NCBI GenBank assembly: GCA_965262615.1
Contig: OZ253545.1
Span: 512,001 to 576,000 of the forward strand
Length of the DNA: 64,000 bases
Reading direction: 5' to 3'
From: Alphaproteobacteria bacterium
GTDB lineage: Bacteria > Pseudomonadota > Alphaproteobacteria > GM7ARS4 > G965262615
Shown here: piece by piece, positions 7,419 through 33,173 of the stretch
Numbering within the stretch: the stretch's first letter is position 1
Layout of the letters: each line of letters starts with the position of its first letter
The notes under the pieces: generated by a model
Seen by the model: the letters and a program-made list of their open reading frames with translations, nothing else
Told to the model about the DNA's origin: nothing
The model's database searches: none
Position numbers and translations under genes: made by a program

Positions 7419-7438
7419 AAATAATTTGATACACCATT

Positions 7439-7457: not shown

Positions 7458-7495
7458 GTTAGTTTATGTGCACAACCCAACAAGGAAGGATTACC

Positions 7496-7830: not shown

Positions 7831-7866
7831 CATGTCCGTGTAACCATAACGAATGAAGAGGACACC

Positions 7867-8094: not shown

Positions 8095-8662
8095 TGAGAC
8101 ATCCCCACAGGATCTTTTCAGAAGACGCTTGAACATAGCCAGTGCTGTCTTTTGGGTGCAAATTGAGGTCATTGGTAATGCACATCTTGGTTCTTTTGAT
8201 GTGAGTGAAGACCAAATCCGCTTGTTGCATTCCATTTGCATGAATGGGCTTTTAGGTAATGCTGGCGTGTACAGAGATGTTGGGTTGCGTCCTTTGGGGA
8301 AGCATCCTCCGCCGTCCGCAAGGGATGTTCCGTCGTTGATGCGAGAATTTGTCGTGTCCGTCAATGACAAATTAGAGTCTGGCGACAATCCAATTTATGT
8401 GAGTGCTTTTGCCTTGTGGCGAATTAATTGGATTCATCCATTTTCCAATGGAAACGGACGGACAGCACGGTTGTTTTCTTATTTCGTCATGTGCATGTGT
8501 TCAGGAGGTCTCCTTAGGGGCAGTGGGAAAAATCTTGTTCCACATCAGCTGGGCGGTCCTCTTCGTGGGAAATATGTTGCCGCTTTGAGAGAGGCTGATG
8601 ATGGTGATTTAGTCCCCTTACAAGATCTTTTAGCTGATGCCTTGAGTAAACAGCTAAAATAG
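8087..8662 (+). CDS. Fic/Doc family protein
   Basis: WIHPFSNGNGRTAR catalytic loop and AGVYRD flap motif. Confidence 0.92.
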   Translation: MVDETSPQDLFRRRLNIASAVFWVQIEVIGNAHLGSFDVSEDQIRLLHSICMNGLLGNAGVYRDVGLRPLGKHPPPSARDVPSLMREFVVSVNDKLESGDNPIYVSAFALWRINWIHPFSNGNGRTARLFSYFVMCMCSGGLLRGSGKNLVPHQLGGPLRGKYVAALREADDGDLVPLQDLLADALSKQLK

Positions 8663-12033: not shown

Positions 12034-12850
12034 TTTCTTTCCAAGAACCAACCGTCTTCCAGATCATTCACCTAAATATTGGGCAAGGAACAAGGATCGT
12101 TTTTTGCGCCAGTTGTTGGTGTCCGACATTGAGAAAGAGACAGAGCGTCCTTTGGTTGTTTATTTTGCTTCTGCCAACGAAAGCATCAATGGACACGATG
12201 CGAGCATCAATCGTTACGATGTTGAGGATTTGTATGAGGTCACAAAAAAAATTGAAAAGAGTAAAGAGATTGATTTGTTTCTGCAAACATTTGGTGGGGA
12301 TGTTGATGCCACAGAGAAAATTATTAAATTTCTGCGGGAGCGTTTCAGAAGTTATAGGGTAGTTGTTCCCAATTGGGCGAAAAGCGGTGGAACGCTGATC
12401 GCTTTAGCGGCAGAAAAAATCATTATGGGGACAATATCGGAATTGGGTCCCATTGACCCTCAGGACGGTGGTTTTCCATGCGAATTGTTGGAAAAAGATA
12501 AGAAACTTCCTTTTTATGAACGGGAATCTATGAAATTGACAGTAGAGAGGGTTAAAAATCTTGCTCAGGGGTATCTTGATGGTAAAGTAGAGAGTGGGAA
12601 ACTTAAGGATGTCGTAGAAAAAATAGCATCTCCATATAGTTATGGCTCTCATGCGGCGGTTATTGATTTTCATGAGGCAAAAGAAATTGGCTTGCATGTG
12701 GATTTATTAAATGAAGATAATCCGTTGTGGCAGAAAATTTGGTTTTTATACTGTCTCTACGATGTGGATATGCGTAATTCTGGTCTGGCAAGGATATGTG
12801 AGACAAGTCGTTACAGCATTGCTCGTCGTCTTCCGCCCCCGCGTAAATAA
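12002..12850 (+). CDS. SDH-family Clp-fold serine proteinase
   Basis: LQTFGG, VPNWAKSGGTLIAL (Ser), SELGPIDPQ (Asp), SHAAVI (His); AT-rich. Start uncertain (12002-12011). Confidence 0.85.
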   Translation: MMVMEESPRADFFPRTNRLPDHSPKYWARNKDRFLRQLLVSDIEKETERPLVVYFASANESINGHDASINRYDVEDLYEVTKKIEKSKEIDLFLQTFGGDVDATEKIIKFLRERFRSYRVVVPNWAKSGGTLIALAAEKIIMGTISELGPIDPQDGGFPCELLEKDKKLPFYERESMKLTVERVKNLAQGYLDGKVESGKLKDVVEKIASPYSYGSHAAVIDFHEAKEIGLHVDLLNEDNPLWQKIWFLYCLYDVDMRNSGLARICETSRYSIARRLPPPRK

Positions 12851-12925
12851 TCTTGCCGATGGCGGCACATTGTTTGAGAGTGGCATCATTGATTCCTCAC
12901 TGATTGTCTCGCTACTCCGTGTCTT
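12842..12925 (+). repeat. Degenerate copy of the tkt upstream region and start (other copy 13849-13930)
   Basis: Shared blocks CGTAAATAATCTTGC (15/15), TGATTGTCTC and CTCCGTGTCTT in the same order and spacing. Confidence 0.85.
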
Positions 12926-13823: not shown

Positions 13824-13923
13824 AACAACCTGAGGCTTTATCTCAATTCGTAAATAATCTTGCTCACGGCGGCGGCTTGCTTTAGAGTGATGCCATTGAT
13901 GCCTTCTTGATTGTCTCTGCTCC

Positions 13924-15915
13924 GTGTCTTCTGTTTCCACCCGCTCTCTTGCCAATGCCATTCGGATTTTGTCTGCCGATGGTGTGGAGCGCGCCGCCTC
14001 GGGTCATCCGGGGTTGCCGCTGGGCATGGCGGATGTGGTGACGGTGCTTTTTCGTGACTATCTCAAGCAGGATGCCGCCGCGCCCCACTGGCACAATCGC
14101 GATCGTTTTGTGTTGTCGGCAGGACACGGCTCCATGTTGCTCTACAGCGTGGCGCATCTGTTGGGGCATGAGGATGTGCCACTGGAGGTGTTGAAGAATT
14201 TTCGCGCTCTTCATAGCCCCACCGCCGGTCATCCCGAATACGGCTTGTTGCACTGTGTGGAGACCACCACAGGACCTCTTGCCCAAGGCTTTGCCAATGG
14301 GGTGGGCATGGCAATCGCCGAGCGATGGATGGCGCATCACTGGAGGGAAAACCTCATTGACCATCACTGTTATGTGGTGGTGGGCGATGGCTGTTTGATG
14401 GAGGGATTGTCGCATGAGGCGGCATCGCTGGCGGGACATCTCAATCTGCGGCGGCTGATTGTGTTGTTTGACGATAATGGCATCTCCATTGATGGCTCGG
14501 TGCGGCTTGCCTCCAGCGATGACCATCGCGCCCGTTTTGAATCCTACGGCTGGCAGGTGCTGGACGGCGATGGTCATGATGAAGTCGCCATCAAAGCCAT
14601 GCTGGATGAGGCCCATCGCAGTGAGCGTCCCTCTTTGCTGGCGTGTCGCACTCACATTGGCTATGGCGCGCCGCATAAACAGGGCAGTGAAACGGCTCAC
14701 GGCGCACCACTGGGAAGCGATGAGGTCGCCGCTCTGCGCGAGCAACTGGAGTGGCATCACAAGGAAGCATTTTTCATTCCCGATGACATCAAACGCGCAT
14801 GGCGCGCCATCGGCGCACAGCATCACGACACTCACTTGGCGTGGAAGAAAAAACTCAGCAACCACCCTCAAGCCGACCAATTCAAACAGATGATGGACAA
14901 TCCTCTTGGGGACGATTGGCGCACAGTCATTCATCGGTTCAAAAAGCAACCCATGAAAGCCATCGCCACTCGCAAGAGCTCACAGCAGCTGTTGTCTCAA
15001 TTGACAAAAACGCTGCCCAATCTCATCGGCGGCTCGGCGGATTTGACCGAGTCCAACGGTGTCAAAGGAGACGCTCAAGCCGTCATCACGGGCACTCATC
15101 GCAACGGTCAGTTCATTCATTACGGCATTCGCGAGATGGGCATGGCGGCGGTGATGAACGGCTTGGCACTCTATGGGGGTTTGCGTCCTTATGGCGGCAG
15201 CTTTCTTGTGTTCACCGATTACGCCCGCCCCGCCATGCGCTTGTCAGCCCTGATGGGACTGGGGGTGATTTATGTCATGACGCACGATTCCATCGGCGTG
15301 GGTGAGGATGGTCCCACCCATCAGCCCATTGAGCATTTGGCATCGTTGCGCGCCATTCCCAATATGCTGGTGCTGCGTCCGATGGATGGCGTGGAGATGG
15401 CGGAATGTTGGGAAATCGCCTTGCAAAATGACACCCGTCCATCGGTGTTGGTGCTCACACGGCAGGATGTTCCCGTCATCAGAGACAAAGCCACGCCCGA
15501 TAATCTCGCCGCCAAAGGAGCATATGTCGTGCGGGAAAATGACACCGCCCAATTGACTCTGCTCGCCACAGGCTCGGAAGTCGCCATCGCCATCGCCGCC
15601 CATGAGGAGCTTTTGAAACATTCAATCGCTTCTCGGGTGGTCTCCATGCCCTGCTGGGAATTGTTTGAAGAATGTCATGATGACCAGCAAAAAGCCGCGC
15701 TGCTGGGGAAAAATCACAAACGCATCGCCATTGAAGCCGCCGCCTCGCAAGGGTGGGATCGCTACCTGCACGGATTGCAAAGCGGCGGCGGCGCATTCAT
15801 CGGCATGAATCGGTTTGGCGCATCAGCAACCGCACAGAAATTGTTTGACCATTTTGATATCACGACTCAACACACCGTGAATATCGCTCAGAAGCTGTTA
15901 GATCGTGTCGTTTAA
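13924..15915 (+). CDS. tkt: Transketolase
   Basis: SGHPGLPLG, RDRFVLSAGHGS, GDGCLMEG, GEDGPTHQP. Confidence 0.98.
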   Translation: MSSVSTRSLANAIRILSADGVERAASGHPGLPLGMADVVTVLFRDYLKQDAAAPHWHNRDRFVLSAGHGSMLLYSVAHLLGHEDVPLEVLKNFRALHSPTAGHPEYGLLHCVETTTGPLAQGFANGVGMAIAERWMAHHWRENLIDHHCYVVVGDGCLMEGLSHEAASLAGHLNLRRLIVLFDDNGISIDGSVRLASSDDHRARFESYGWQVLDGDGHDEVAIKAMLDEAHRSERPSLLACRTHIGYGAPHKQGSETAHGAPLGSDEVAALREQLEWHHKEAFFIPDDIKRAWRAIGAQHHDTHLAWKKKLSNHPQADQFKQMMDNPLGDDWRTVIHRFKKQPMKAIATRKSSQQLLSQLTKTLPNLIGGSADLTESNGVKGDAQAVITGTHRNGQFIHYGIREMGMAAVMNGLALYGGLRPYGGSFLVFTDYARPAMRLSALMGLGVIYVMTHDSIGVGEDGPTHQPIEHLASLRAIPNMLVLRPMDGVEMAECWEIALQNDTRPSVLVLTRQDVPVIRDKATPDNLAAKGAYVVRENDTAQLTLLATGSEVAIAIAAHEELLKHSIASRVVSMPCWELFEECHDDQQKAALLGKNHKRIAIEAAASQGWDRYLHGLQSGGGAFIGMNRFGASATAQKLFDHFDITTQHTVNIAQKLLDRVV

Positions 15916-15957: not shown

Positions 15958-16680
15958 CTAACTTAACGATTGTATAGGGGGCATCTCATCATATGTTCTG
16001 CCGTTCAAAAGCCTCCCCGTTAAATCCTTGCGAACGCCGCCCCATTGCTTGAAGAAAAATTTAACCTTGCTTTTTCTGCACTGCTTGCGGATAGACTCCA
16101 CCCAAGCTTTTCGCATCAAGCGAGCTCCCGTCCCCGACTCGCCGCCGACAATCACCCAATCAATGCCATTTAACTGAAGGTTTTCACAGTGACCAATCAA
16201 AGGCTCACAAGATAAAAAGCGCACATATGAAGGCACATGGTGCAAATCTTCTATCCTGTTATAAACGCTTTCATCCTCTACACTGACACCCATCCAGATG
16301 TTTGGTGTCCAAGTCAATTGCAAGGCATACGCCCTCAACCGAGAGCTTCTTTTTGTGAGAATTTGAAATGTGTGTTGCGGACATTCATTCATGGTCGCAA
16401 ACACTTTTTGAATGAATGACAAAGGCACTTCGGGATGAAATAAATCACTCATGGAATTGACAAAAACAATTCTCCCCTTTTTCCATCTTTTCGGCAGGTC
16501 AATTAAATCTTCGTGCAAGGTGACATCAAAGCCGTTGCGATAGCGTTTATTGCCCATGACATGCAATCTGGCAGCCATCCGATGAGCATAGCAATTTTTG
16601 CACCCCGCGGAAATCTTGTCGCATCCCGTCACTGGATTCCAAGTGACTTCCGTCCATTCAATTTTTGACAACGATGCCAT
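15958..16680 (-). CDS. DUF5131 (phage Gp37/Gp68-like, radical-SAM-related three-Cys) protein
   Basis: SKIEWTEVTWNPVTGCDKISAGCKNCYA, VNSMSDLFH, WVIVGGESG, FFFKQWGG. Confidence 0.93.
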   Translation of the reverse strand: MASLSKIEWTEVTWNPVTGCDKISAGCKNCYAHRMAARLHVMGNKRYRNGFDVTLHEDLIDLPKRWKKGRIVFVNSMSDLFHPEVPLSFIQKVFATMNECPQHTFQILTKRSSRLRAYALQLTWTPNIWMGVSVEDESVYNRIEDLHHVPSYVRFLSCEPLIGHCENLQLNGIDWVIVGGESGTGARLMRKAWVESIRKQCRKSKVKFFFKQWGGVRKDLTGRLLNGRTYDEMPPIQSLS

Positions 16681-16683
16681 AAA

Positions 16684-17571
16684 TCATTCCCCCAAATTCA
16701 GTGACAGCTGTTGCCCTGATGATTCTTGGGAGCGTTCTCTCGGCTTAATAATATTATGCCGAGCTATGTTTTTTGCTATCTCAATAGCTCTAGGATTTTT
16801 GCTCCCAACACAAAAAATAAATTCAAACATGGCACTGTTTTTATCAGTTTTAAAAGTCTTGCTTTCCTCAAGCAATCTATTGCCAAATAAACTACGCAAT
16901 TGGTTTTTATAAAGATTGAGTATGCCCCTCACCCCTTCATCCATAATCACTTCATCATCGCCAAAAACATTTTGCTGAGGGTTGGTTTTATAAAAATTCT
17001 GCCAACTATTTCCACCAAAAATAAGCGTGAGTTTTTCTGCCCAAGTAGAATCAACATCCTCTGGCTTTTTTGTTCTAGGAATGATACGGGAAATTGCCAT
17101 GATTGGAAACAATATCCAAGTATCCAAAGCTTCATAGCTGGCAACTTCTTTCAAAGTAGAAAAATTCAATTGAGTCGCAAATGGATCAATAAACAGCACA
17201 CCTCTGTATTTTTTCCAATCTCTATTGAGATTTTTCAAAAACTCATTGGCATCTCCTTGAGAAATCTTTACACGCTCTTCATGGCCAAATCGTCCCTTAA
17301 GCCGTGCATGGGCTTCTATTTTCCACTCATTAAAAAGCAATTCATCAAATTGCCTATCTTTAATATCCAAAGCTATTTTTGGAGACCCCTTGATAAATTT
17401 TGACACACCGTCAGACTTTAACGGGACATATCCTGGTCCCGCAAAAGCATCTATGTAAATTAGACGAAAATACCGCCCTTTTTCGCTATTCAGCACTGTC
17501 GTGTATGCATCAAGATACTTGCCGAGTATCTTCAGCTTTTCCTCTGTCCATTCGCCACCGTATTCTTTCAT
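16684..17571 (-). CDS. tcmP: Three-Cys-motif partner protein (SAM-dependent methyltransferase-like)
   Basis: GEWTEEKLKILGKYL, YIDAFAGPG, GSP, GDAN, FIDPF; adjacent to DUF5131. Confidence 0.9.
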   Translation of the reverse strand: MKEYGGEWTEEKLKILGKYLDAYTTVLNSEKGRYFRLIYIDAFAGPGYVPLKSDGVSKFIKGSPKIALDIKDRQFDELLFNEWKIEAHARLKGRFGHEERVKISQGDANEFLKNLNRDWKKYRGVLFIDPFATQLNFSTLKEVASYEALDTWILFPIMAISRIIPRTKKPEDVDSTWAEKLTLIFGGNSWQNFYKTNPQQNVFGDDEVIMDEGVRGILNLYKNQLRSLFGNRLLEESKTFKTDKNSAMFEFIFCVGSKNPRAIEIAKNIARHNIIKPRERSQESSGQQLSLNLGE

Positions 17572-17638: not shown

Positions 17639-17664
17639 GCACCCCACAACCACCTTTTTTATTG
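17639..17664 (+). repeat. 26-bp dispersed motif GCACCCCACAACCACCTTTYTTATTG (inverted copy 26043-26068)
   Basis: 25/26 identity with the reverse complement of 26043-26068. Confidence 0.9.
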
Positions 17665-20349: not shown

Positions 20350-20357
20350 GAGTTTTG

Positions 20358-20825
20358 ATGATGGCTCAAACATCTCATTATGCGTCTTTTTGGCAGCGTC
20401 TGGGGGCGGGGGTGATTGATGTGATCATTGTGGTGATTGCCTACGATGCGATGGCGGCATTCACCGTGCTGGGCATTGAGTGGGAGCGGGAACTGGAGGG
20501 CTTGCCTCCCATGGCTGTCCCCATGAGTGATGCCGCGTCTTTTTATCTCAACCTTATTCTCTCCGAGATTTTTTTGCTGGCGTATTTTGTGATTTTTTTG
20601 TCATCATCACGCCGTGCCACACTGGGCATGGATGTGTTTCGCTTGACTTTGGTGGATGAGGAGTCGCAAAAAGCGGTGACATGGCAAAGGGTGTTGCTGA
20701 GATATATCTCCATGACTTTTTCCATTGCCTTTTTGTTCATCGGTTTTTTGATGATGCTGTGGACGCCCAAACGCCAAGCACTCCATGACCGTCTGGCGAA
20801 CACAGTGGTATTACAAAGGGCTTAA
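20358..20825 (+). CDS. RDD family membrane protein (tandem paralogue)
   Basis: YASFWQRLGAGVID...ATLG...KRQALHDRLANT. Confidence 0.9.
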   Translation: MMAQTSHYASFWQRLGAGVIDVIIVVIAYDAMAAFTVLGIEWERELEGLPPMAVPMSDAASFYLNLILSEIFLLAYFVIFLSSSRRATLGMDVFRLTLVDEESQKAVTWQRVLLRYISMTFSIAFLFIGFLMMLWTPKRQALHDRLANTVVLQRA

Positions 20826-20856
20826 TTGGCGGGTGGCTTTGTGATATAAGCCGTTC

Positions 20857-21864
20857 ATGACTCTTATTATTCCATCAAGCTCATCGTGTCTGTCACCCGT
20901 TCCTTACGACAATGAGGCGGCGTTTGAAAAAGACATTGTGAAGCATTATCCCCTGTTTTTTGGTGAAAAGACGCTGTTTATTCCCAAGAGAAAAATCAGT
21001 GGCGGAGCATTGGGTAACACCATTCCCGATGGCTTTTTGTTTGATTGTCGTGATGGTCAAAATCCGCGCTTTTACATCGTAGAAGTGGAATTGAGCCACC
21101 ACTCCTTTAGCCATATTCGTAGTCAGGTTGATAGGTTTTTGAATTTCTTTAACAGAAGGGAAATTCATGGCTTGGTTGGAACAATTTATAACACTGTTCA
21201 TAACGACAAAGAATTGAAGCAGAGATGGAATTCCTATTGCACTGGCGATATGCACCATTTGATGACGCGTAGCATTCAAGACCGTCACGGTATTCTTGTG
21301 CTTTTTGAGAAGAAAAATGATGATTTGGAAGAAGCGTTTGATGAGCATGGTGGGCTTTATGATTTATGGGAAAGGAAAGTGCAACGGATATTTATTCAAA
21401 AATATCAAGATGGTGATGATGTATTTTTTCACCAAGAAGGTGGGGTTGGTCAGCAAGAGATGAGTAATGTTTCAAGCAGTCGTAGGTTGCCTGAAACAGA
21501 GGAAGAGCATTTGCGTGTGTGTTCGCCGTCTACACGCGAGACTTATGCAAAAATAAAAGCCATGTTTCTTGAAAATGGTTTAGAGCAAAGAGTTGTTGGT
21601 GCTTACATTGGCTTTTGGATTAACGGCAGGCGGCGTGTTAAAATGTTTCCTCGCAGGGATTATTTTCATGTCTATGTTTTGCATGACGACTACAAATATT
21701 TCCATGATGGCGACAATGGGGATAGACACGCTCAATTGAAAAGCGTGGTGACACCATATCAGGTCATGTCGCCCAATGAAGGACACGACCATTTCTATCT
21801 AATCTTGGACAACGCCGACTACATGGACGCATTGCGGGCTTATATTCAGCCCGTTTTGTCTTAA
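20857..21864 (+). CDS. Putative PD-(D/E)XK nuclease with DUF5655-like C-terminal domain
   Basis: E..FE...IPDGFL...YIVEVEL N-terminal pattern; C-terminal domain (YIGF...VKMFPRR) is paralogous to 22671..23069. Confidence 0.6.
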   Translation: MTLIIPSSSSCLSPVPYDNEAAFEKDIVKHYPLFFGEKTLFIPKRKISGGALGNTIPDGFLFDCRDGQNPRFYIVEVELSHHSFSHIRSQVDRFLNFFNRREIHGLVGTIYNTVHNDKELKQRWNSYCTGDMHHLMTRSIQDRHGILVLFEKKNDDLEEAFDEHGGLYDLWERKVQRIFIQKYQDGDDVFFHQEGGVGQQEMSNVSSSRRLPETEEEHLRVCSPSTRETYAKIKAMFLENGLEQRVVGAYIGFWINGRRRVKMFPRRDYFHVYVLHDDYKYFHDGDNGDRHAQLKSVVTPYQVMSPNEGHDHFYLILDNADYMDALRAYIQPVLS

Positions 21865-21900
21865 TTCACCTGACGGCTTGCCTTCGTCAATCGTTCTCGC
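21783..21900 (+). repeat. Junction repeat unit R1 (gene 3' end + inverted MTase 3' end)
   Basis: GGACAACGCCGACTACATGGAC...CCCGTTTTGTCTTAA followed by ACCTGACGGCT..TCGTTCTCGCG, matching 24144-24177. Confidence 0.9.
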
Positions 21901-21949
21901 GATTGATACCAACGAAATTTTTGACTACCATGAACACTGAGCAGGAATT

Positions 21950-22495
21950 ATGAGTGAAACATTCACCATCACACGCACCGAGCAACGAGGCGAAGCCACA
22001 TTGGGCATGATGACTGACGAGAACGGCGCGGCTTTGTGTTGGACGCTTGAGGATTTGCAGCGTGCCGAAAAGATGGGTGGCGAGACCGCAATCCCTGTGG
22101 GGCGTTATGAGTTGATTGCTCAAAGCGAGAGCAAATTCATGGGTGTCTATCAGACGAAGATGGAGGGGTGGGGGATTTCTCATCCTTTCATGATTGAGTT
22201 GGCTGATGTGCCTGATTTTCGCTACATTTTGATCCACTGCGGCAGAACGCACGGCAACACCAAAGGCTGCATTCTGGTGGGTGACAGCAATTGCGTGAAC
22301 TACAAAGGATATGCAGAGGTGAGGGGCAGTTGGCAGGCATACAAGAGGATTTATCCGTTGCTTCGTGATGCGGTCAATGGCGGCGGCGGCTGGATTCAGA
22401 TTGTCAATGAGGTGCGAGGTGAGGAGGGGCTCACGCCACCCGACGACTCACATCCGCCAATCTTCGGCACACCAGACCGAAAAAATCCGAATTGA
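21950..22495 (+). CDS. DUF5675 family protein (phage-type putative peptidoglycan enzyme)
   Basis: ATLG...CWTLED...ETAIPVGRY...ILIHCG...NTKGCILVG; AGGA RBS. Confidence 0.82.
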   Translation: MSETFTITRTEQRGEATLGMMTDENGAALCWTLEDLQRAEKMGGETAIPVGRYELIAQSESKFMGVYQTKMEGWGISHPFMIELADVPDFRYILIHCGRTHGNTKGCILVGDSNCVNYKGYAEVRGSWQAYKRIYPLLRDAVNGGGGWIQIVNEVRGEEGLTPPDDSHPPIFGTPDRKNPN

Positions 22496-22498
22496 GAG

Positions 22499-22620
22499 AC
22501 ACGATTATTTTTATTTAGTCGTGGACAACACTGACCACATGGACGAGTTGCAAGCTCTCATGCAACCCGTCTTGTCTTAAGCCACCAGACGATTTGCCTC
22601 TGCCAGTCTTTGGTGCGTAA
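22499..22620 (+). repeat. Junction repeat unit R2 (non-genic)
   Basis: Encodes HDYFYLVVDNTDHMDELQALMQPVLS* with no gene 5' part, then GCCACCAGACGA..CCTCTGCCAGTC. Confidence 0.92.
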
Positions 22621-22670
22621 GTGCGAAAGTTTTTTTTGATTATGTGGCTTTTTAGTGCTACAATCAGTCC

Positions 22671-23069
22671 ATGAACAATTTGAGCGAAAAAGAAATTTCT
22701 CACTTGCAAGAGTATCCAAAGTTCGTGCGCGCCATTTATGCAAGGGTGAAGGAGTGTGTTGACGAAAGAGGTTTGATTCCACGCGTAACAAAAGACTACA
22801 TCGCTTTTAGAAACGACAGAAATGTAATTGAAATGTATTTTCGTCAGGAATATATCCATTTCTATGTTTTGCATGACAATTATAGGTATCGGGATACAGC
22901 CAAAGTGCCAATGCGGGATGTTGAGCAGAAGAAGGATCGCATTGCAAGCATGGTTCAATCGTATGAAATTGAAGAACCCAACGAGGGACACAAGCATTTC
23001 TATTTAATTGTGGACAACGCCGACCACATGGACGAGTTGCGAGCTTTCATGCAACCCGTTTTGTCTTAA
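22671..23069 (+). CDS. Stand-alone DUF5655-like domain; its 3' end is repeat unit R3
   Basis: 132 aa aligning with the C-terminus of 20857..21864 (H.YVLHD.Y.Y, PNEGH.HFYLI.DNAD.MD.LRA..QPVLS). Confidence 0.75.
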   Translation: MNNLSEKEISHLQEYPKFVRAIYARVKECVDERGLIPRVTKDYIAFRNDRNVIEMYFRQEYIHFYVLHDNYRYRDTAKVPMRDVEQKKDRIASMVQSYEIEEPNEGHKHFYLIVDNADHMDELRAFMQPVLS

Positions 23070-23074
23070 GCCAA

Positions 23075-24076
23075 ATGAATCTTTACGGGTCTTATCGTAA
23101 ATTATTGGCGAACAGCAAACACGCCGTTATAGCTGCCATTGAGATATACAACAAACCCAAATTTGAATATCGGGAAGAGATTTTTACAATATTGATTGCA
23201 ACAGCGTGGGAACTCTTCATCCTTGCTGTCTTGTCAAAAAACAAGCAACGCGTATTCGCTCCCAAAAAAAGGCACGAGGAATATAGAACACTATCCTTTG
23301 AAGAAGCCATAAGACAGGCAAAAAAGTATTTTCCTAAGGAAAAGTCACCTGATGCTGTCATTAGTAACATTCGTTCATTGAGAGCATACAGAAACACAGT
23401 GGTGCATTACTATCAGAAAGAGCAGAACAAACATGCAGTATACATGCTAGCCCATGCGTCTATCATGAATTACAGAGATTTATTGCTATCAATTTTCAAT
23501 CATGATATTGCCAGCGAAGTGAGTATTGTATTGTTGCCACTTAGCTTTAACCGCCAGCCAAACTTTGTTGAGTTTTTCAAAAAAACGCAAAAGAGAAATT
23601 TTACTCCATTCGTGAATGATCTTTTTACATCTATGCAAGCATTGGAGTCTATCAATGGTGTTGACACAAATCGCTTTATTACGGAATGTGTCATTAGAAT
23701 AGAGCCAGCTAATAGCATAAAGACCGCTGATGTTATAGTTAATGTCAAAGGTGGAGATGCTGAACATGTCGTTTTGAGGGACATTGATCCCGATGATAAA
23801 TATCCTTTTTTTCGGAAAAATATTATTGGTGATAAAAATACTCAAGTTCACAAAAATTTGAAACGCGGAATTAATTCATACCTGTTTCAAATAATTGTGT
23901 GGAAGTATTCTATCAAAAAAGACAGAAAGTATTGTTGGGCATCAAAAAAAGGTGGTTCGCCAAGATATTCCCAAAACATGATTAATTTTTTAAATAATCT
24001 TACTGACAATGAGATTGAAAGAGCGAAGGAAGAGTATAGGAATTTTCGGCAGAGAGAAAACTTAAAAAAGGTTTGA
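23075..24076 (+). CDS. DUF3644 (HEPN-like) domain protein
   Basis: AAIEIYNKP...YREE.F.IL...AWEL and RNTVVH (R-x4-H) motifs; strongly AT-rich. Confidence 0.85.
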   Translation: MNLYGSYRKLLANSKHAVIAAIEIYNKPKFEYREEIFTILIATAWELFILAVLSKNKQRVFAPKKRHEEYRTLSFEEAIRQAKKYFPKEKSPDAVISNIRSLRAYRNTVVHYYQKEQNKHAVYMLAHASIMNYRDLLLSIFNHDIASEVSIVLLPLSFNRQPNFVEFFKKTQKRNFTPFVNDLFTSMQALESINGVDTNRFITECVIRIEPANSIKTADVIVNVKGGDAEHVVLRDIDPDDKYPFFRKNIIGDKNTQVHKNLKRGINSYLFQIIVWKYSIKKDRKYCWASKKGGSPRYSQNMINFLNNLTDNEIERAKEEYRNFRQRENLKKV

Positions 24077-24082
24077 AGAAAT

Positions 24083-24180
24083 GAACAAAGCCGACCACAT
24101 GGACGAGTTGCAAGCCCTCATGCAACCCGTTTTGTCTTAGGCAACCTGACGGCTCACCTCTGCCAGTCGTTCTCGCGCCA
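24083..24180 (+). repeat. Junction repeat unit R4 (abuts the live MTase stop)
   Basis: GCCGACCACATGGACGAGTTGCAAGCCCTCATGCAACCCGTTTTGTCTTA. Confidence 0.92.
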
Positions 24181-24952
24181 AATTACAATAGTTTTCATCA
24201 ATTTCCATTGCGATAAAATGCCGTGCATGAACTTTTGCCATCACTGCGGTTGTGCCACTGCCACACATGGGGTCACACACCACATCGCCCTCATTGCTGA
24301 AACAACACAATAAGTCCGATGCCAGCGCATCGGGGTAGGTGGCGGGGTGCTTCATCTTGAGGCGATTGCCCTCTGTGTTGCTGGTGGCATAATTCCACAC
24401 CGTGCCGCGGCATTTTTTGTCATTCACCTTTTTTGGAGCAATCACCTTAAAGCCCCCATTTGTGAGTCTGTCCGTGCCGCTATAGGTTTTGCCGGCGTGT
24501 TTGCTGGCGATCATCAAATGCTCTTTGTGAAACACGCGCGGGCGCGCGCCTCGCAAAAACAACAAAATATATTCATGGTCTACACGAAACCGTCCGTTCC
24601 ACCACGCCCCCGGATTGCCATGACGCTGATAAATGCAACACTCAAACAAACGCAAATCCGTTTCATCCACCCAATTGACCGCCAGCCGAAAGGATGTCAG
24701 AGACTTGGCAAAATCCTTTGTGCCATCGCCAATCACCACCGCCACCACGCCGCCATCTTTAGTGATTCGTGCCAGCTCCTTGCCCAACGCCGTATAATCC
24801 CAGCTCCAGTCGCCGTTGTAATCACGAATTCCATCGTAGGGCGGTGAGAACAGGGTGAAAGAAATTGATTCATCAGGCAGCTGCGGCAACAATTCCAAGC
24901 AATCGCCATGCATGATGGCATCTCTCATCTTGGGGGGGATTTTTTTCGTCAT
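24137..24952 (-). CDS. Orphan N4-cytosine/N6-adenine DNA methyltransferase (beta class)
   Basis: GDCL, SPPY (motif IV) before HPA.YP and DPMCGSGTT (motif I). Confidence 0.92.
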   Translation of the reverse strand: MTKKIPPKMRDAIMHGDCLELLPQLPDESISFTLFSPPYDGIRDYNGDWSWDYTALGKELARITKDGGVVAVVIGDGTKDFAKSLTSFRLAVNWVDETDLRLFECCIYQRHGNPGAWWNGRFRVDHEYILLFLRGARPRVFHKEHLMIASKHAGKTYSGTDRLTNGGFKVIAPKKVNDKKCRGTVWNYATSNTEGNRLKMKHPATYPDALASDLLCCFSNEGDVVCDPMCGSGTTAVMAKVHARHFIAMEIDENYCNLARERLAEVSRQVA

Positions 24953-26017: not shown

Positions 26018-26075
26018 GGGATGAGTGTAGCAGTGAAGACACCAATAAGAAAGGTGGTTGTGGGGTGCAAGGTTC

Positions 26076-26666
26076 TCACACCACCACTTTTTTTTCGTCT
26101 ACTTTATTAATTTTCTCACGCCGAACTGATACAGCTTTTTCAACCAATTGCGGCAACTGATTATTATAAGCGGCAACTTGTTCGCCAGACCAGGTCACAT
26201 ATTCTTTGAGCAGTTCCAATTTCTGCTCAAAATCTTTATTTAATTTTTTAGGATTTGAACAATCATCAGAGTCAAGAGGGTACGAGATAGAAATCCGCAC
26301 TTTATCGCCCACCACCTCGCCAGGGCAACCAAGCATGGTTAATGTGGGTGTTTGACATTCAAAAAGCCAATACTCACCTTCAAAAGGGATATCGGCATTA
26401 TATTGCACTCCATCCACAGAGGGATAGTGATGGTATATTGAGTGACGAGACATCTCAATTTTTGTTTCCTTGCCGTCATGCTTTTCTATTTGTTCTTCAT
26501 GAAGAACAAGAGGCTCAATTTTTAATGGAGCGACGATGCCGTCAATGATGGCTTTGTCATTTGAGCTTGAGAATTGATCTCTAGGAATTTTCTCTACCAT
26601 AGAGGCAATTTTTTGCTTTCGTTGTTCAATCTGCGCATACAAATAGCGTTGCCTGAAAAGTGTCAT
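26076..26666 (-). CDS. Hypothetical protein, possibly C-terminally truncated
   Basis: 196 aa, AAGGAG RBS; ends in an A-rich run at the island edge. Confidence 0.6.
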   Translation of the reverse strand: MTLFRQRYLYAQIEQRKQKIASMVEKIPRDQFSSSNDKAIIDGIVAPLKIEPLVLHEEQIEKHDGKETKIEMSRHSIYHHYPSVDGVQYNADIPFEGEYWLFECQTPTLTMLGCPGEVVGDKVRISISYPLDSDDCSNPKKLNKDFEQKLELLKEYVTWSGEQVAAYNNQLPQLVEKAVSVRREKINKVDEKKVVV

Positions 26667-27246: not shown

Positions 27247-28698
27247 TCAGAGACCCTCTTCTGCAACAATGCGCTCTGCCAGTGAGAGAGCCTCATATTC
27301 ATTGTTGGAGTGATTGAAAATCATCGCCACAATTTTTCTTCCATTAGAATTAGGGTGCCTCCCCTCCATTTTAATGGGCACACTAAAGTTGTTGCTGACT
27401 AATTTTTTCAAATGACGAGTCTCTTCACACATAGGCAAGTGAGCTGAATTGATTTTTGCATGAAAGTCTTCTATCTGAGACTCCAATTTTTTTCTCAAGT
27501 CACCCTCAATCAAACCTTTTTCAATAAGGTTCATACAGCCAATAAAATAGGAAGCTCTCTTTTCAAAGTTACGCAACATATTGCGCTCTGAAGATTTGGA
27601 ACGACATAGACGCGCAATAGCCCTACCGTTAAGCTTAAGTCTGCTTACAAGCTCTCTATAAAAAGCGTTATTTTCGAAATTATCGCGGCTACCGTTTGGG
27701 ACAAGCCGTTCATCAATAATATGAATTTCACCAACACACCAGCTATTGAACCGTTCCTCAGGAAAAATGTCCAATAGAATTCTATTATCACCTACCTGTA
27801 TGTTTCCACAACGGATTCGCAATCCAGCAATGCTTTGATTATGCTGTAGTGAGCCAAAGTAATTATGATGAGCGATCCAACCCACCGCCGCTAATTGGTC
27901 GCCATGACCCGGAATTTTTATTGTTTCCAGTTCCGTAAAGGAATCTTTCAATTGAGAAGAAAGAGAAAACTTATTACGAAACGGACGACAAATTGGCTCT
28001 TCTGAGTCATTCAGGTAAATTGAAATTCCACTGACATCAACATGAGGAGATAAAAATTCATTTATATCACGATGAAATTTGAATTCAGAAGCAAAGGGCA
28101 CTGGCGCGATTTGCTCCAAAAATTTCTTGACTGCATCCTCATTGAGTAGAATGTCATTGCCGTGGCGGATGACATCATGCAAAGTAACTTGAAAGAAAGA
28201 TTCATCTGAAGGGTCGCAAGATTCTTGAGAAAAAGAAGTGGCTTTTTTTACAAGGCTTAAAGCATCAATGCTATCATCGCTTGACATAAGAAGCTTACTA
28301 AAATGGACAACATCCCAATCAAAATTGCTTATTTGACCCTCACCAGCCGCCTTTGTCTTGAAGGATAGACGCTTGCAATAACCAATTCCAGAAAGCCTCC
28401 CAATTCCCCAAAGCCCACGCGATGACACCATATATTTTTTTGAGCTGCATCCAAGCCCCGTCATACAGGAAAGGAAATTTGCATTGGTAATTCCGCTCCC
28501 ATTGTCCCTAATGCTTACCATGCGCTCTGATTGATCAATAAAAATATCTATGCGAGGCTCAAAACGGTTATTGTCCTTACGAGCATCATCAACGGAGTCA
28601 GCAGCGTTTTGGATATACTCTCTGTAAAGCAGGAGAGGATTGCCATACATAGCTGTTGTGACAAGGCGCAGGATATTTTTGCCGACACGAGCATTCAT
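27247..28698 (-). CDS. GHKL (Hsp90/MORC-like) ATPase
   Basis: REYIQNAADS, IRDNGSG, SSK, GLWGIGRLSG; second domain with VGEIH...PNGSRDNFE. Confidence 0.88.
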   Translation of the reverse strand: MNARVGKNILRLVTTAMYGNPLLLYREYIQNAADSVDDARKDNNRFEPRIDIFIDQSERMVSIRDNGSGITNANFLSCMTGLGCSSKKYMVSSRGLWGIGRLSGIGYCKRLSFKTKAAGEGQISNFDWDVVHFSKLLMSSDDSIDALSLVKKATSFSQESCDPSDESFFQVTLHDVIRHGNDILLNEDAVKKFLEQIAPVPFASEFKFHRDINEFLSPHVDVSGISIYLNDSEEPICRPFRNKFSLSSQLKDSFTELETIKIPGHGDQLAAVGWIAHHNYFGSLQHNQSIAGLRIRCGNIQVGDNRILLDIFPEERFNSWCVGEIHIIDERLVPNGSRDNFENNAFYRELVSRLKLNGRAIARLCRSKSSERNMLRNFEKRASYFIGCMNLIEKGLIEGDLRKKLESQIEDFHAKINSAHLPMCEETRHLKKLVSNNFSVPIKMEGRHPNSNGRKIVAMIFNHSNNEYEALSLAERIVAEEGL

Positions 28699-30272
28699 GA
28701 GTCATCGCTCTCTTCTGCAATGCCAGCATCTTCGACTCGCTCATCATCTGGCAATGACGGCAAGTCTTCGGCAACTTTAATCGCTTTCATTTTTTCCCAA
28801 ATATCCATCTCTTCTTGAGAACTTACCTTACGGTAGAAATGATGCAAGTCTCTAATTTTCTTATCAGCATGATTGAACAATCTTTCTTCACGCTCCTTAC
28901 TGTCTCTCGTATCAAGCGCGGATTTTAGATCGTCTTTTTGAGACGGTGATAATTTTGAAAAGTGAGTACAAAATTCATCATACTCTTCTCTGCCACCGTA
29001 TTGGGTGTACCATGCTCGATTAAAGGTATACACATGCGGCTGAAAAAGAAGGTCTTCAAAATCATCATAGCTATCACCAAAGGCTGTTTTGAAAAACGCA
29101 GGATTGCCACTCACAATGCCATGGGTTGCTTGCAGGATAATTTGCATGGAGCGTAGCCAGTAAATGTTCCATTTTTCCCCGACATAACGGCGGTGAGGCT
29201 GATTGGTGGGCTGATAGCGCATAGGAAAGGAAAAAATCCTGATTCCTAACTCTTCATTGAGAGCCACATTGAGGCGCATCCGAGCAAAAAGGTCTTGAGG
29301 GCTATCGTGGAAATTATAAAGCATATAATTTGAAAGCTCAGTAATGCCAGCATCAAAGGCATAGCGGACCGCTTGTTCATAGGGTTTGCGTAATCCTCCA
29401 TGATCAAAGGCAATGCGTAATGGCTTAATGCAAATGGTTGCCATTTCCTGTAGAAAATGAGGTGATTTGCAAAGAATACGGGCATCCACGCCTTGATTAA
29501 AGTCCACACGGCGTTGTAATGAGCGTCCATTTCTTTTTAGTTTTGCACCCGCTTGAAATCCAAGATCGCGTATTTCAGCTATAATTTCCTTATAGCGTGG
29601 GGCAGCTGTGACATTGTTGTCCATCAAAATGAGGTCTTTCTTCTCGCCGTAGAGCTCAGCTACGCCATCAATAATGCGGCTCAATGATTGCGTTTCGCGC
29701 AAATCCCCTTCTAGTTTCGGAACACCACAAAAAGAACATTTACGAGTACAGCCCCGAGAAGCATAGGTGAAATAAGCATCCGATACAGGATATTGATAGT
29801 CAATGTGGTCAAGAATGCTGTAATCAGGGACATGGTCTTCAATGGGCGTTCCTTCTGTGTCATCGGCATAAAGGTCATTGGAAAAATGATCCAGCTGCAA
29901 TGAGGTTGCCGGATCCTTATCCAAAAGACCTTGAATAAAGCGCACGCCACTCCAGCGTGGCTCATCGGTGAATCGCTCGCGCATGAGAGAGGCGGCAATG
30001 CCGCCGACAAAAACCTTGTCAGCATTGCCACCAACCGCCTTGAGAGCAAAGTCTATGGATGCCGCAATGCGTTTATACTCAAAAGAAAAAAGGGTCGTGA
30101 TATAAATGCGATCCCAATGTTTTTGCAACACGCTTTCATCCTCTCCCTTGATAAAGCACACATGGTCATTTTTGCCTCGCTCACCGTGATACTGAGCAAT
30201 TTTCATGAGCCCCAACGGCGGATACTTGTTTTTATAGCCGGGCTCAATCAGCAAGATGTTTTTACCAGACAT
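28695..30272 (-). CDS. Radical SAM protein with B12-binding-like N-terminus
   Basis: ILLIEP...YPPLGLMK, VGGIAAS, SRGCTRKCSFC (CxxxCxxC), MDNN, DFNQG.DAR; start placed at MSGKN (30272). Confidence 0.9.
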   Translation of the reverse strand: MSGKNILLIEPGYKNKYPPLGLMKIAQYHGERGKNDHVCFIKGEDESVLQKHWDRIYITTLFSFEYKRIAASIDFALKAVGGNADKVFVGGIAASLMRERFTDEPRWSGVRFIQGLLDKDPATSLQLDHFSNDLYADDTEGTPIEDHVPDYSILDHIDYQYPVSDAYFTYASRGCTRKCSFCGVPKLEGDLRETQSLSRIIDGVAELYGEKKDLILMDNNVTAAPRYKEIIAEIRDLGFQAGAKLKRNGRSLQRRVDFNQGVDARILCKSPHFLQEMATICIKPLRIAFDHGGLRKPYEQAVRYAFDAGITELSNYMLYNFHDSPQDLFARMRLNVALNEELGIRIFSFPMRYQPTNQPHRRYVGEKWNIYWLRSMQIILQATHGIVSGNPAFFKTAFGDSYDDFEDLLFQPHVYTFNRAWYTQYGGREEYDEFCTHFSKLSPSQKDDLKSALDTRDSKEREERLFNHADKKIRDLHHFYRKVSSQEEMDIWEKMKAIKVAEDLPSLPDDERVEDAGIAEESDDS

Positions 30273-30279
30273 AGCCTTA

Positions 30280-31260
30280 TCAAGGTTCTTTCGCAAGAAA
30301 ATCATCCACTCGCTGTAAAGCGCGCTTGATCTTTCTGACGATAGGGGCACATTTATTGCGCTCTTGTTTTTGCATATCGGAATCCAGTGGCGCATTTGAC
30401 AAGCGGGAATTGACGCTTTTTAATGTTTTTTCCAAGGGTGACCTTTGTGAAAGCTCATAAGCTTCATCCAATGAAATCTCTCCCTTGATTAATTTTTGCA
30501 ACATTTTCTTTTTTTCTATAATAGTAGGCATCTTATTTCTGAGATCTTGTGTAGAAAAAGGAGGGTCATTTTTTATTTCTTTCAAAAGATACTTCTTAAA
30601 ATCTGCATTAGAAGCCATCTCGCTTTTTACAGCGCGACGCAGCACAATACCTTCGTAGTAGTGGCTAAAATGGGGCTTTTTATTGTCCCCATTTTCACGC
30701 ATCATTTTTATTGTTTCGACATAATTTTGAAGTTCAGACTTGCTTAGAGAGAACCTTATAACCATTTCTTCATAAGAAATCTTCTCTTCTTCTATTCTCC
30801 TATAAAGCTTGCCAGCAAGTTCATACGGGTCCCAGGGTGTCTTTCCCTCGGAATGCTCGAGATCAAGAAAAGAATCTATCTGTCTTTCACTAATATCTGC
30901 TACTACTTTGCAGCGGATAGATTCCCATTTGTGGGGATCTTTTTGATAAAGCAGGCGGTAAGCTGCTAAGCGCGAATTCCCTTCAATCACTTCCTTCTTC
31001 TTAAAATTAACAAAGATTGGATTTATCAAGCCTCCATGCTTATTGATACTTCCAACCAATTTTTTCTTGACATGGCTCTCACCTTGCAATTTGTGTTCTA
31101 TAACGACCTGCAGTTGGTCGTAGGGCAATTTCCGCTCATCATCAGATATCGAAGAATACACACGGGGGTTGTCAGGCAAATACCTGAGCTCATTAACATC
31201 CATAGATTGAATTTCAAAAGGAATCTCATCACCCAGAATGTGTATGTAGCTATCACTCAT
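30280..31260 (-). CDS. ParB/Srx-like domain protein 2
   Basis: DNPR...SI..HGGL.NPI.V...VIEGNSRLAA...W.PYE.A. Confidence 0.78.
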   Translation of the reverse strand: MSDSYIHILGDEIPFEIQSMDVNELRYLPDNPRVYSSISDDERKLPYDQLQVVIEHKLQGESHVKKKLVGSINKHGGLINPIFVNFKKKEVIEGNSRLAAYRLLYQKDPHKWESIRCKVVADISERQIDSFLDLEHSEGKTPWDPYELAGKLYRRIEEEKISYEEMVIRFSLSKSELQNYVETIKMMRENGDNKKPHFSHYYEGIVLRRAVKSEMASNADFKKYLLKEIKNDPPFSTQDLRNKMPTIIEKKKMLQKLIKGEISLDEAYELSQRSPLEKTLKSVNSRLSNAPLDSDMQKQERNKCAPIVRKIKRALQRVDDFLAKEP

Positions 31261-32732
31261 TTCAAAAAATCATCCTCTAAGGTCATTTTCAAGAAATTCT
31301 CCAAGTCCGATTTTACATCAAAATCAAATGACGCGTCAAACTCTTTTTGATTTTGATCCCCTTGTGCCAATTGAGCTGCTTGATGCTTTGCTTTAAGGAG
31401 ACGAGCCGTCCACAGGTCAATGGTTTGATCGGCGATGAGGTTATGGACAAAACAATGTTGCTCTTGTGAAATTCTGTGAATGCGGTCTTGTGCCTGCAAA
31501 TAATCATCCAAACTGAAACTCCGATCATAAAAAATCGCATGATTAGCCACCGTTAAGGTGAGTCCCTCTTTGGCTGAGCCGGGTGTGGCAATGAGAATTT
31601 GGCAATTCTTGTCGCCCTTGAATTTTTGCACGGCATGGTGGCGTTCATCCATTGTTTTTTTGCCATGAATTTTTGCAACGCCATAATGTTTCAGCTGACT
31701 TGCCAGCCAGTCTGCATTTTTGATGAAGCTTGTCCACACAATCACTTTTTCATTTTGCATGGTGATTGTGTCCACCATTTTTTGCAGTTCAACAAACTTA
31801 CATGGAATCTCATCGTATTTATCATCAAAAATAAAAGGATTGGATGCACACTGCACGAGGCGCAAAAGCCCCTTGAGAATGTTGTTAATTGTATCCAGCA
31901 GAATATCATCCATTCTGTACATGAATTCATCTCTGTATTGGCGATAGATTTCCTCCTGCCGTGGCGCAAGAGGCACTTTATGCTCCCTAATCGTCTTTGA
32001 CGGCAATTCAATTCCTGAAGATTGTTTTGTCTCACGAATGGCAAAGTGCTTAATTGAATTGAAGATGCCAGACAGAACATCGCTGTATTTTTCATCCGTT
32101 TCATCATTTTTCATATCAGGCAAGTCCGTTTGTCTTTTGAATTGATCAAAAGAATCCCCTAATGCTTTGCCTCCATCCAGAAAATTGATTTGTGACCAAA
32201 TATCATAGGGGCGATTGGCAACGGGCGTTCCTGTCATGATGATGCGCCGTTCAAAAGATGGCGCCATGTTCAAAAATACTTTGGTGATTTTGGAGTCAGG
32301 ATTTTTGATTTTATGTGCCTCATCCAAAATCACACCGACACGACAGGTTTGCAAAAAAATCTTCAGCAATTCTTCATTGGCTGTCAAAACTTCATAATTC
32401 ATCACATAGAGAAGCACAGGCGAATTGAGCAGCATGCTATTTTCTCTACGCTTTTGTGAAAGAATACTTGGCTTGATATGACAGTGAACCTGAGCCTCTT
32501 CTCGCCAATTATGAACAAGAGATTTTTTTGTGACGATAAAAACCGTATCCACAATGTCCTTTGTGAGCCAAAAAAGAGTGAGATCCAAAGCAATCTTGGT
32601 TTTTCCTAATCCTTGTTCATGAAAAACAGCCGCATAGGGCAAGTCTTGAATTGCTCGCAGTGCATCCAACTGATACGGAAAAGATTCCGTTTTGCCCATG
32701 AAGCTGGGAGGCTTTTTCAAAACAAATGCCAT
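31257..32732 (-). CDS. SNF2-family helicase/ATPase
   Basis: EQGLGKT, LDEAH, MTGTP.AN, KVIVW, GLTLT.A, QA.DRIHRI; AGGAGG RBS before ATG 32732. Confidence 0.92.
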   Translation of the reverse strand: MAFVLKKPPSFMGKTESFPYQLDALRAIQDLPYAAVFHEQGLGKTKIALDLTLFWLTKDIVDTVFIVTKKSLVHNWREEAQVHCHIKPSILSQKRRENSMLLNSPVLLYVMNYEVLTANEELLKIFLQTCRVGVILDEAHKIKNPDSKITKVFLNMAPSFERRIIMTGTPVANRPYDIWSQINFLDGGKALGDSFDQFKRQTDLPDMKNDETDEKYSDVLSGIFNSIKHFAIRETKQSSGIELPSKTIREHKVPLAPRQEEIYRQYRDEFMYRMDDILLDTINNILKGLLRLVQCASNPFIFDDKYDEIPCKFVELQKMVDTITMQNEKVIVWTSFIKNADWLASQLKHYGVAKIHGKKTMDERHHAVQKFKGDKNCQILIATPGSAKEGLTLTVANHAIFYDRSFSLDDYLQAQDRIHRISQEQHCFVHNLIADQTIDLWTARLLKAKHQAAQLAQGDQNQKEFDASFDFDVKSDLENFLKMTLEDDFLK

Positions 32733-33154
32733 TTTATTTTTCCTCCTGCTTTTAAGAACCAAGCGTCACACTCATCAAAAACAATCATGTGGGTTCTTTT
32801 TAATTTCATGTCGTCTCGTAATTTTTCTAGCACGAATTGCGTTTTTTCCAAGCACTCATAAGGCACAGACAACATCAATTGATTATCTTTACCTTTTTCA
32901 AGGTAAGATAAAAAAGACTTGAATTGGCTGATACTATGACGACGCTCAATATCAAATGATGTCTTAGCCTCGCCAATGATAATCTGTTTTTTCGTTTCGG
33001 CGTATAGGTCAGGTCTGTGGCTACCGATAATGGGAGGTGTGGGGTCTCCCGGCTTTTCTTGAGCATCAACTACAGCCTTACTATCAGGAAAATTCTCATT
33101 GAGCCAAATTTCCATTTTTTTCACTAAGAGTCTGTGTTGCTCGCTTTCAGCCAT
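32717..33154 (-). CDS. Small PD-(D/E)XK nuclease-fold protein
   Basis: ES..H..L...RPDLYA...IIIGEAKT motif. Confidence 0.65.
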   Translation of the reverse strand: MAESEQHRLLVKKMEIWLNENFPDSKAVVDAQEKPGDPTPPIIGSHRPDLYAETKKQIIIGEAKTSFDIERRHSISQFKSFLSYLEKGKDNQLMLSVPYECLEKTQFVLEKLRDDMKLKRTHMIVFDECDAWFLKAGGKIKWHLF

Positions 33155-33173
33155 ATTGCAAGCTTAGCTATAA

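Follow-up and report, generated by a model that had tools for sequence, protein, structure and literature searches.

The window analysed here is a stretch of 64,000 nucleotides (nt) covering positions 512001-576000 of the single 1,542,258-nt contig (OZ253545.1) of an alphaproteobacterial genome (GCA_965262615.1), which is 98% complete and has a G+C content of 0.514. At 533-537 kb of this genome lies an array in which the end of a nuclease-like gene (A335) and the end of a DNA methyltransferase gene recur between other genes. From left to right, the locus consists of an RDD-family gene, A335, a methyltransferase-end remnant (R1), a DUF5675 gene, a second remnant of this kind (R1b), a remnant of both gene ends (R2), a gene of 132 amino acids (aa; A132), a DUF3644 gene, a nuclease-end remnant (R4) and the intact methyltransferase gene on the opposite strand. 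The features are, in window coordinates:

20355..20825, plus strand: RDD-family gene, left flank (Pfam RDD, E 1e-22)
20836..20860, plus strand: R0, a -10-like box and the nuclease start codon, resembling the antisense methyltransferase tail (~24208-24230) in the gene-tail comparison
20857..21864, plus strand: A335, 335 aa, G+C 0.42; ends in the 93-nt nuclease half of R1
21861..21901, minus strand: R1 methyltransferase-end remnant (30/40 nt; 14 codons in frame)
21950..22495, plus strand: cargo 1, DUF5675 gene, reading through R1b (Pfam E 3e-23, residues 6-138; PHROG phrog_1501, E 1e-21)
22431..22486, minus strand: R1b, methyltransferase-end remnant, apparently of a diverged, once-coding allele (28/40 nt)
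22494..22580, plus strand: R2 nuclease-end remnant, 28 codons, no gene of its own (87% to R3 over 91 nt)
22577..22676, minus strand: R2 methyltransferase-end remnant, reaching the promoter-like site and start codon of the 132-aa gene (local alignment)
22671..23069, plus strand: A132, the 132-aa gene, whose end is R3 (44% identity to A335)
23075..24076, plus strand: cargo 2, AT-rich DUF3644/EC042_2821 HEPN-family gene (Pfam E 1e-33 and 8e-11; G+C 0.357)
24082..24140, plus strand: R4 nuclease-end remnant, ~19 codons, its stop overlapping the methyltransferase stop (90% to R3 over 61 nt)
24137..24952, minus strand: intact N6/N4 DNA methyltransferase, 271 aa, right flank (Pfam N6_N4_Mtase, E 2e-27)

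The initial annotation had described four recurring units at this place. They were recovered as the top family of a repeat finder (D1) and by blastn of the locus against the whole genome. Any two of them are 76-90% identical over 61-102 nt (E 6e-12 to 2e-24), and the rest of the 1.54 Mb holds no further copy. A unit is made up of a left half, the end of A335, and a right half, the reverse strand of the methyltransferase end. All four units have the left half, which measures about 84 nt in R1-R3 and about 60 nt in R4 and is in frame in each of them, as had been claimed. The right half is identical to the intact gene at 30/40 nt in R1 and at 29/40 nt in R2, and R3 is without it (15/40 nt). It had been assigned to R1, R2 and R4 and is indeed present there, but in R4 it is the end of the intact gene and not a remnant; the nuclease halves of R1 and R3 are likewise the ends of intact genes. 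The additional methyltransferase-end fragment reported at 22435-22474, within R1b, matches at exactly the 28/40 nt given before, and its local score was above those of 1000 out of 1000 shuffles. In the methyltransferase frame the remnants are open over the last 14 (R1), 15 (R1b) and 11 (R2) codons. The stop codons of the nuclease-like gene and the methyltransferase gene overlap, which leaves no neutral space at their junction.

The two foreign genes are co-oriented, and on either side of each of them a gene end is directly repeated over a length within 40-100 nt. Four equal cassette sites, as proposed earlier, were not found: DUF5675 lies between methyltransferase ends only (R1 and R1b, about 40 nt, 24/40 alike), and DUF3644 between nuclease ends only (R3 and R4, 61 nt at 90%). 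No word longer than 9 nt is shared by all four units, and the units fold into short hairpins only (z -0.45 to -3.2). A conserved RNA hairpin was considered and rejected, since R1 folds in another register than R2-R4 and no compensatory change was seen; we make no structural claim.

A structure model of A335 (predicted local distance difference test, pLDDT, 79.9) has an N-terminal domain with a restriction-endonuclease-like fold, matching PaqCI (Z 8.3, root-mean-square deviation (rmsd) 3.2, 127 aligned), HamA (Z 8.2) and BstEII (Z 8.2), and a YdhG/YjbR/MotA-CTD-like C-terminal domain (YdhG-like, Z 9.4, rmsd 2.8, 104 aligned), which may be a shuffled binding module. The Z values are middling, and we call A335 nuclease-like by predicted fold; Foldseek returned nothing for it at E≤0.001, and NCBIfam has no name for A335, A132, the DUF5675 or the DUF3644 protein. 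The A335 family is widespread, with 801 representatives at E≤0.001. The three genes between the units had been taken for unrelated cargo. DUF5675 and DUF3644 are foreign, but the 132-aa protein is a stand-alone paralogue of the A335 C-terminal domain, to which the 44% identity refers. The label DUF5655-like, given earlier to the nuclease end, corresponds to a sub-threshold match (15.9 bits, cut-off 24) of the 132-aa gene only. Stand-alone relatives of this gene are P0152 and P0258, its allele type also occurs inside the full-length nuclease genes P0004 and P0006 as well as in the sequencing runs X1, X6 and X8 (see below), and the nuclease end in R2 encodes a protein end like those of P0152 and P0242 from other samples.

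The DUF5675 gene matches a phage family. The DUF3644 gene corresponds to the PADLOC candidate PDC-S19 (E 1e-107), DUF3644 is described as a HEPN family in PMC3710099, and we regard the gene as a candidate defence gene; a role in defence seems plausible for other genes of the locus too. For the methyltransferase, the top PADLOC model is that of an orphan methyltransferase (E 1.5e-38), and relatives are P0011 (94%) and P0012 (85%). With its nuclease-like predicted fold, A335 next to a methyltransferase recalls a type II restriction-modification pair, although the methyltransferase model is an orphan one and the neighbours of distant A335 homologues vary. At the six distant loci examined these were DUF3644, a type III Mod-Res pair, an Eco57I-like gene or none such, and a similar small methyltransferase stood beside the homologue in 0/6.

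DUF3644 was also considered as a fixed partner of the nuclease and rejected: the pair occurs at one distant locus type (L009), where the DUF3644 protein is 22% identical, and the gene is absent in other strains. At that locus (L009:4369-6344) the DUF3644 gene lies directly 3' of the distant A335 homologue. As a separate observation, the YdhG/YjbR-like domain is found in P0008, P0176, P0152 and P0258 alone, read through into an unknown domain, or before a PD-(D/E)XK domain (weak Pfam match, E 7e-5).

Genomes offered little for comparison. There were no DNA matches to the locus in any of the 30 other GTDB genomes searched, no A335 match in the three genomes of the same order (GTDB holds no sister genome in the family), and no viral locus with a homologue in the viral search; the locus searches yielded distant homologues only, at ≥10 metagenome loci (25-38%) and two genome loci. 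Strains were compared instead through contigs matching at 80% likeness, with one run per study, in 4 of the 12 listed runs (X1, X5, X6 and X8, from four studies; X5 is a marine and X8 a sponge metagenome). At this likeness joints may derive from related organisms; long flanking pieces with few differences point to close relatives in every run. Cargo of sister strains was mapped through joints, and the sequences between joints are counted here as letters.

All four runs had joints that differ from the window. In X6, record 16 runs from a nuclease end with the 132-aa-type allele through R1, DUF5675 and R1b, then over 123 letters into a second DUF5675 start and over 305 letters into the methyltransferase, so that two DUF5675 copies are present. 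In X5, record 10 joins 22486 to 24237 and leaves 22744-24079 uncovered; by our arithmetic, which assumes the same end as in record 12, it carries about 800 letters beyond what the window accounts for. X1 reproduces R3-DUF3644-R4 (22906-24202, 1297 nt, record 6) with 0 differences and also holds joints of the X6 type as well as one from the nuclease end to the nuclease promoter, which implies several strains in the run. In X8 a methyltransferase end is joined to the nuclease promoter (joint 24178>20816), and a nuclease end reads through into another domain, as in the protein P0008. A nuclease-type end (14 loose letters, compared by eye) is also joined there to the methyltransferase at 24132, with no DUF3644 cover; this allele differs, and the contigs do not bridge the place. 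The DUF3644 region 23412-24079 was uncovered in X5, X6 and X8, and such missing cover is weak evidence unless a contig joins across, which is the case in X5 and X6 and not in X8.

The variation is not limited to the array. The end of the RDD gene shows a joint 20788>20816 with 1324 other letters between in X5 and X6, while in X1 and X8 its loose ends are, by eye, alternative in-frame ends, with a methyltransferase-end copy just before the nuclease promoter. Because of this variation at the RDD end, the hotspot extends to the left of the array. The initial annotation had proposed a gene-capture hotspot and had named a fixed arrangement in relatives as evidence against it; cargo and joints vary instead. 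Since four runs from four studies differ in contents and allele ends, these results support the locus as a gene-gain hotspot with contents that vary between strains, in which alleles are swapped and foreign genes are bracketed by one half of the junction or the other.

A misassembly had been raised as a possible error. Mixing of strain haplotypes during assembly is conceivable, as there are several strains per run at the locus (X1) and no contig among those listed spans the whole array. Nevertheless, the copies differ by 10-24%, X1 record 6 repeats its part of the array without a difference, and contigs of X5 and X6 cover A335-R1-DUF5675-R1b. Only the join R1b-R2-A132 (~22487-22900) is without a long bridging piece among those listed, and we consider an artefact very improbable.

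The initial annotation had further suggested a logic like that of an integron, acting at a single reusable site. The locus is not an integron. As in integron arrays, co-oriented single genes lie between short repeats and their content varies between strains; in contrast to them, there is no uniform unit, no attC core box was found on either strand in any of the four units with the R''/R' core-box consensus, and no IntI-type integrase or other recombinase lies beside the array in a PF00589 search of the genome. The two tyrosine recombinases (PF00589) of the genome lie at 22 kb and 409 kb, more than 120 kb from the array, and from their size are probably XerC and XerD. Resolvases, large serine recombinases, IS110, DDE_Tnp_1 and RVT_1 were not found in the 98%-complete genome. 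With the tyrosine recombinases these make the six families tested, not every transposase family, and none of the six is represented in or near the inserts. RecA, MutS, ComEC and DprA are present.

Site-specific entry could nonetheless have left relics: elements might have integrated at the 3' end of the methyltransferase or nuclease gene, each carrying a replacement end, in the manner of lambdoid elements in E. coli icd, with an integrase that has since disappeared or works in trans. Such elements bring replacement ends by which the protein sequence is preserved, and the methyltransferase likeness of R0 and R2 stops at the same antisense ATG. Besides the distance and probable identity of the two tyrosine recombinases and the missing attC boxes, this account has to face a dif likeness at the locus that is at background (best 10-13 of 22 arm bases, as in most random windows) without flanking 28-bp pdif sites, and the fact that a single locus holds duplicated ends from two or three different genes. 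Start-codon selection offers another explanation of the common end point, which R1 does not share significantly. We consider this origin improbable, with a small chance at best. The genome has its dif candidate near 1,089 kb, where the skew peaks. A 26-nt inverted repeat (96%) at window positions 17639-17664 and 26043-26068 encloses 8.4 kb including the array, and a related third copy lies at genome positions 970646-970691.

Gene-end duplication turned out to be a habit of the whole genome. Among 80 tandem arrays with units of 50-1100 nt, 25 span a gene junction, 32 lie inside one open reading frame (ORF) and 23 are unclassified; of the 25, 10 are at convergent junctions, where 15% would be expected (P 0.002). 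For 27 of 1199 ORFs the last 45 nt have a lone copy nearby, compared to 2 for a mid-gene stretch and 4 for a point 200 nt upstream of the end; the 27 include the array locus twice and several paralogue arrays. Other cargo is bracketed in this style elsewhere, by unrelated repeats. The last 53 nt of gloA (glyoxalase) are repeated (92%) around a DarT-Macro gene (genome 1418710-1420053), 43 nt of the secA end recur (91%) on both sides of a Panacea-domain gene plus an ORF of unknown function (genome 117873-118787), and an 84-nt repeat (77%) ending at the start of tkt (transketolase) brackets an AT-rich, aspartyl-protease-like ORF of 140 aa (window 12842-12925 and 13849-13930). Because the same style of event is seen at unrelated gene ends across the genome, the process is general and not tied to the A335/methyltransferase junction. 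The earlier idea of growth at one and the same junction is not supported on this account, nor by the breakpoints, which differ for each cargo. The placement of duplications at gene junctions is explained by survival bias, since both neighbours stay whole there, a point also made by Furuta et al. (PMC2853133). Two cargo-free tandem duplications lie within the window itself: one of 363 nt (73%) at the end of a gene (7369-8099), and one of 313 nt (83%) across a convergent junction (47452-48086). The gene at the 363-nt duplication is one which we take to encode a ClpP-like protein.

A local nuclease might alternatively have driven the insertions. A335 or another restriction enzyme would cut near the junction, and repair from incoming DNA would copy 40-100 nt of a gene end to both sides in one step, with no prior tandem duplication. 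The restriction-endonuclease-like predicted fold of A335, beside a methyltransferase, fits this, as does the bracketing of each cargo by one half only, which separate events would yield. Furuta et al. (PMC2853133) report restriction genes, mostly in competent species, that are surrounded by variable repeats of >30 bp placed at start and stop sites, with no mobile element involved, and suggest double-strand breakage. However, cargo-free junction duplications are common throughout the genome and make a local nuclease unnecessary, and the pattern of the array recurs at gloA, secA and tkt, with no restriction-type gene noted in the inserts. The activity of A335 is a prediction from its fold, and the distant homologues stand beside no similar small methyltransferase in the six loci mentioned. 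For these reasons we regard nuclease-driven insertion as unlikely.

The remnants themselves point to more than one allele. Across 15 codons, 8 of the differences between R1b and the intact methyltransferase end are synonymous and 5 non-synonymous (random substitution: P 0.001), and R1b starts at its own stop codon. Given this excess of synonymous changes and the stop, R1b by its sequence diverged while it was still coding. The remnants look like pieces of an allele pool, R1b being the one for which this could be demonstrated. A purely local history, in which the junction was duplicated in tandem, genes were inserted once each, and decay and loss followed with no exchange between lineages, would agree with the high local duplication rate, with remnant differences that are mostly indistinguishable from random substitution, and with strains that could simply have lost DUF3644. 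The coding-type divergence of R1b speaks against this account. Moreover, in other strains the A132-type C-terminal allele is part of full-length nuclease genes, remnant ends match whole ORFs from other samples, and the RDD and methyltransferase flanks have alternative gene ends in other runs. A history without exchange is, in our judgement, somewhat less probable even than cutting by a local nuclease.

We favour as the probable explanation a hotspot for defence genes, variable between strains, that general DNA repair and recombination have assembled; most likely, ordinary duplication and recombination of a known kind are at work and not a new integron-like machine. In a first step, short tandem duplications across the junction would keep both genes whole and make spare copies of the gene ends. 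Such junction duplications are common in the genome, and they may have been the origin of the array. Foreign genes would then end up inside spare copies. Finally, a bracketed gene could be added, doubled, swapped or lost by RecA-type crossover of a remnant with an intact end, either within one chromosome or with DNA taken up from related strains. The variation in cargo is observed; the RecA route and DNA uptake would account for it. In this explanation the remnants, which differ by 10-30%, would be products of different alleles, at least one of which diverged while coding.

Several points weigh against the hotspot having been built in this way. With MutS present and a likeness of 60-90% within most repeat pairs, crossover between the older copies should now be rare. 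A plain, cargo-free tandem copy of the array junction was seen in none of the four runs, and neither a circle nor a crossover product was observed among the contigs, which cannot reveal rare ones. In addition, R1b is the sole exception among the remnant comparisons, 8 of 9 of which have no significant coding signature (P 0.08-0.72).

On this explanation, the array works like insertion with long target duplication inside a hotspot free of mobile elements. Insertion with long target duplication, as reported by Furuta, Abe and Kobayashi in 2010 (PMC2853133), likewise places defence-type genes between direct repeats of variable length (>30 bp) across start or stop sites, with no mobility gene and with competence genes present, and both brackets of the array exceed the 30-bp minimum around inserts of less than 20 kb. 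In contrast to those cases, the array stacks several events at one convergent junction, and its repeats are 60-90% alike versus ~95-100%. Its inserts are a HEPN gene and a DUF5675 gene, whereas the screening rule of that study looks for restriction (R) plus modification (M) genes inside the insert; lone mcrA and orphan M cases are also reported there. The mobile-element-free hotspots of horizontal gene transfer of Oliveira et al. 2017 (PMC5635113), with turnover by homologous recombination at flanking genes, share the strain-variable accessory genes at a fixed spot, the lack of a detected integrase or transposase and the presence of RecA, ComEC and DprA. Their model is a double crossover in flanking core genes, while the internal gene-end remnants of the array would also permit additive gain, and its flanks, a nuclease-like and a methyltransferase gene, need not be core genes.

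A likeness to two further systems is possible. In the PeSL cassettes of T4-type phages (Arbiol et al. 2010, PMC2839356), accessory genes sit between repeats of ~100 bp, which contain a stem-loop and a promoter and let the genes be shuffled by recombination with no dedicated recombinase, and the array may be alike in this; PeSLs are non-coding, genome-wide and form circles, whereas the units of the array are protein-coding, confined to one locus, and have a promoter and terminator predicted from sequence only. In the additive flexible genomic islands of Lopez-Perez and Rodriguez-Valera 2016 (PMC4898812), a single site gathers cassettes one after another, and a repeated end of the target gene marks each of them, as seems to be the case here, but most of their targets are tRNA or tmRNA genes, while the target in the array is the place where two protein genes overlap at their ends. 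PMC2568036 describes a related unit that spans genes in tandem paralogues. The literature searched, which holds few subscription papers, contained no array built from two convergent gene ends; the class of mechanism is already known, and the stacked form made of two gene ends is the part for which no report was found there. The locus is a compact example of how a bacterium with a small genome, in which no integrase beside the array and no transposase of the tested families were detected, still turns over defence genes. According to the text of Furuta et al. (PMC2853133), release and re-insertion of repeat-flanked defence genes are without experimental evidence; a 4-kb locus with several natural variants would be a clonable test case for such release.

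The strand opposite to the methyltransferase tail resembles the promoter and start of both nuclease-type genes, a feature overlooked in the initial annotation. In R2 the methyltransferase likeness extends over ~100 nt to the start codon of the 132-aa gene (22578-22682 versus 24138-24237, above 1000/1000 shuffles); for its distal part P was 0.002, and 24 of 1198 gene tails match equally well. A short likeness lies just before A335, where the 25 nt ending at its start (R0) match the antisense methyltransferase tail and none of 1198 other gene tails is as good (P 0.0002 against random ATG-anchored windows, this window having been picked after the match was seen). X8 puts a methyltransferase end at the expected distance, 45 nt before the A335 start by our arithmetic, compared to 49 nt in the methyltransferase gene. 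No signal beyond ~40 nt was obtained for the DUF5675 leader (651 of 1198 gene tails were as good), and a strict extended -10 pattern had no match in the methyltransferase tail, where a plain -10-plus-ATG pattern alone matched. Promoter-like sites follow R1 and R2 (one at 22636-22664), and terminator-like hairpins lie in R1, R3 and R4 (that of R4 at 24107-24126); for the region, totals of 8 terminator-like and 10 promoter-like sites versus 4.5 and 7.8 in shuffles are a modest excess.

A duplicated junction may hand a putative terminator and promoter to an incoming gene. Tentatively, and with considerable doubt, one could go further and see in the coding ends a portable cassette for expression and recombination, in which the nuclease tail would act as terminator and the antisense methyltransferase tail as promoter and start. 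A gene that lands there would be switched on and shuffled by host recombination, in a recombinase-free analogue of PeSLs and integrons; the nuclease itself would have been captured behind the antisense promoter, and its C-terminal domain swapped between alleles via the array. If this were true, the antisense promoter would explain why cargo stays at the junction. Across the genome, a -10-like box precedes the first ATG by 5-7 nt in 65 of 1177 long ORFs, compared with 2% of all ATGs, which hints at leaderless transcripts.

Other genes of the window include a DUF5131 and TcmP pair at 15958-17571, which matches the PADLOC candidate PDC-M41. An ORF of 196 aa at 26076-26666, diverged in X8, matches only positions 6-191 of the 410-position PADLOC candidate PDC-S54, and it is followed at 27247-34199 by an operon with HATPase, radical SAM and SNF2 genes.

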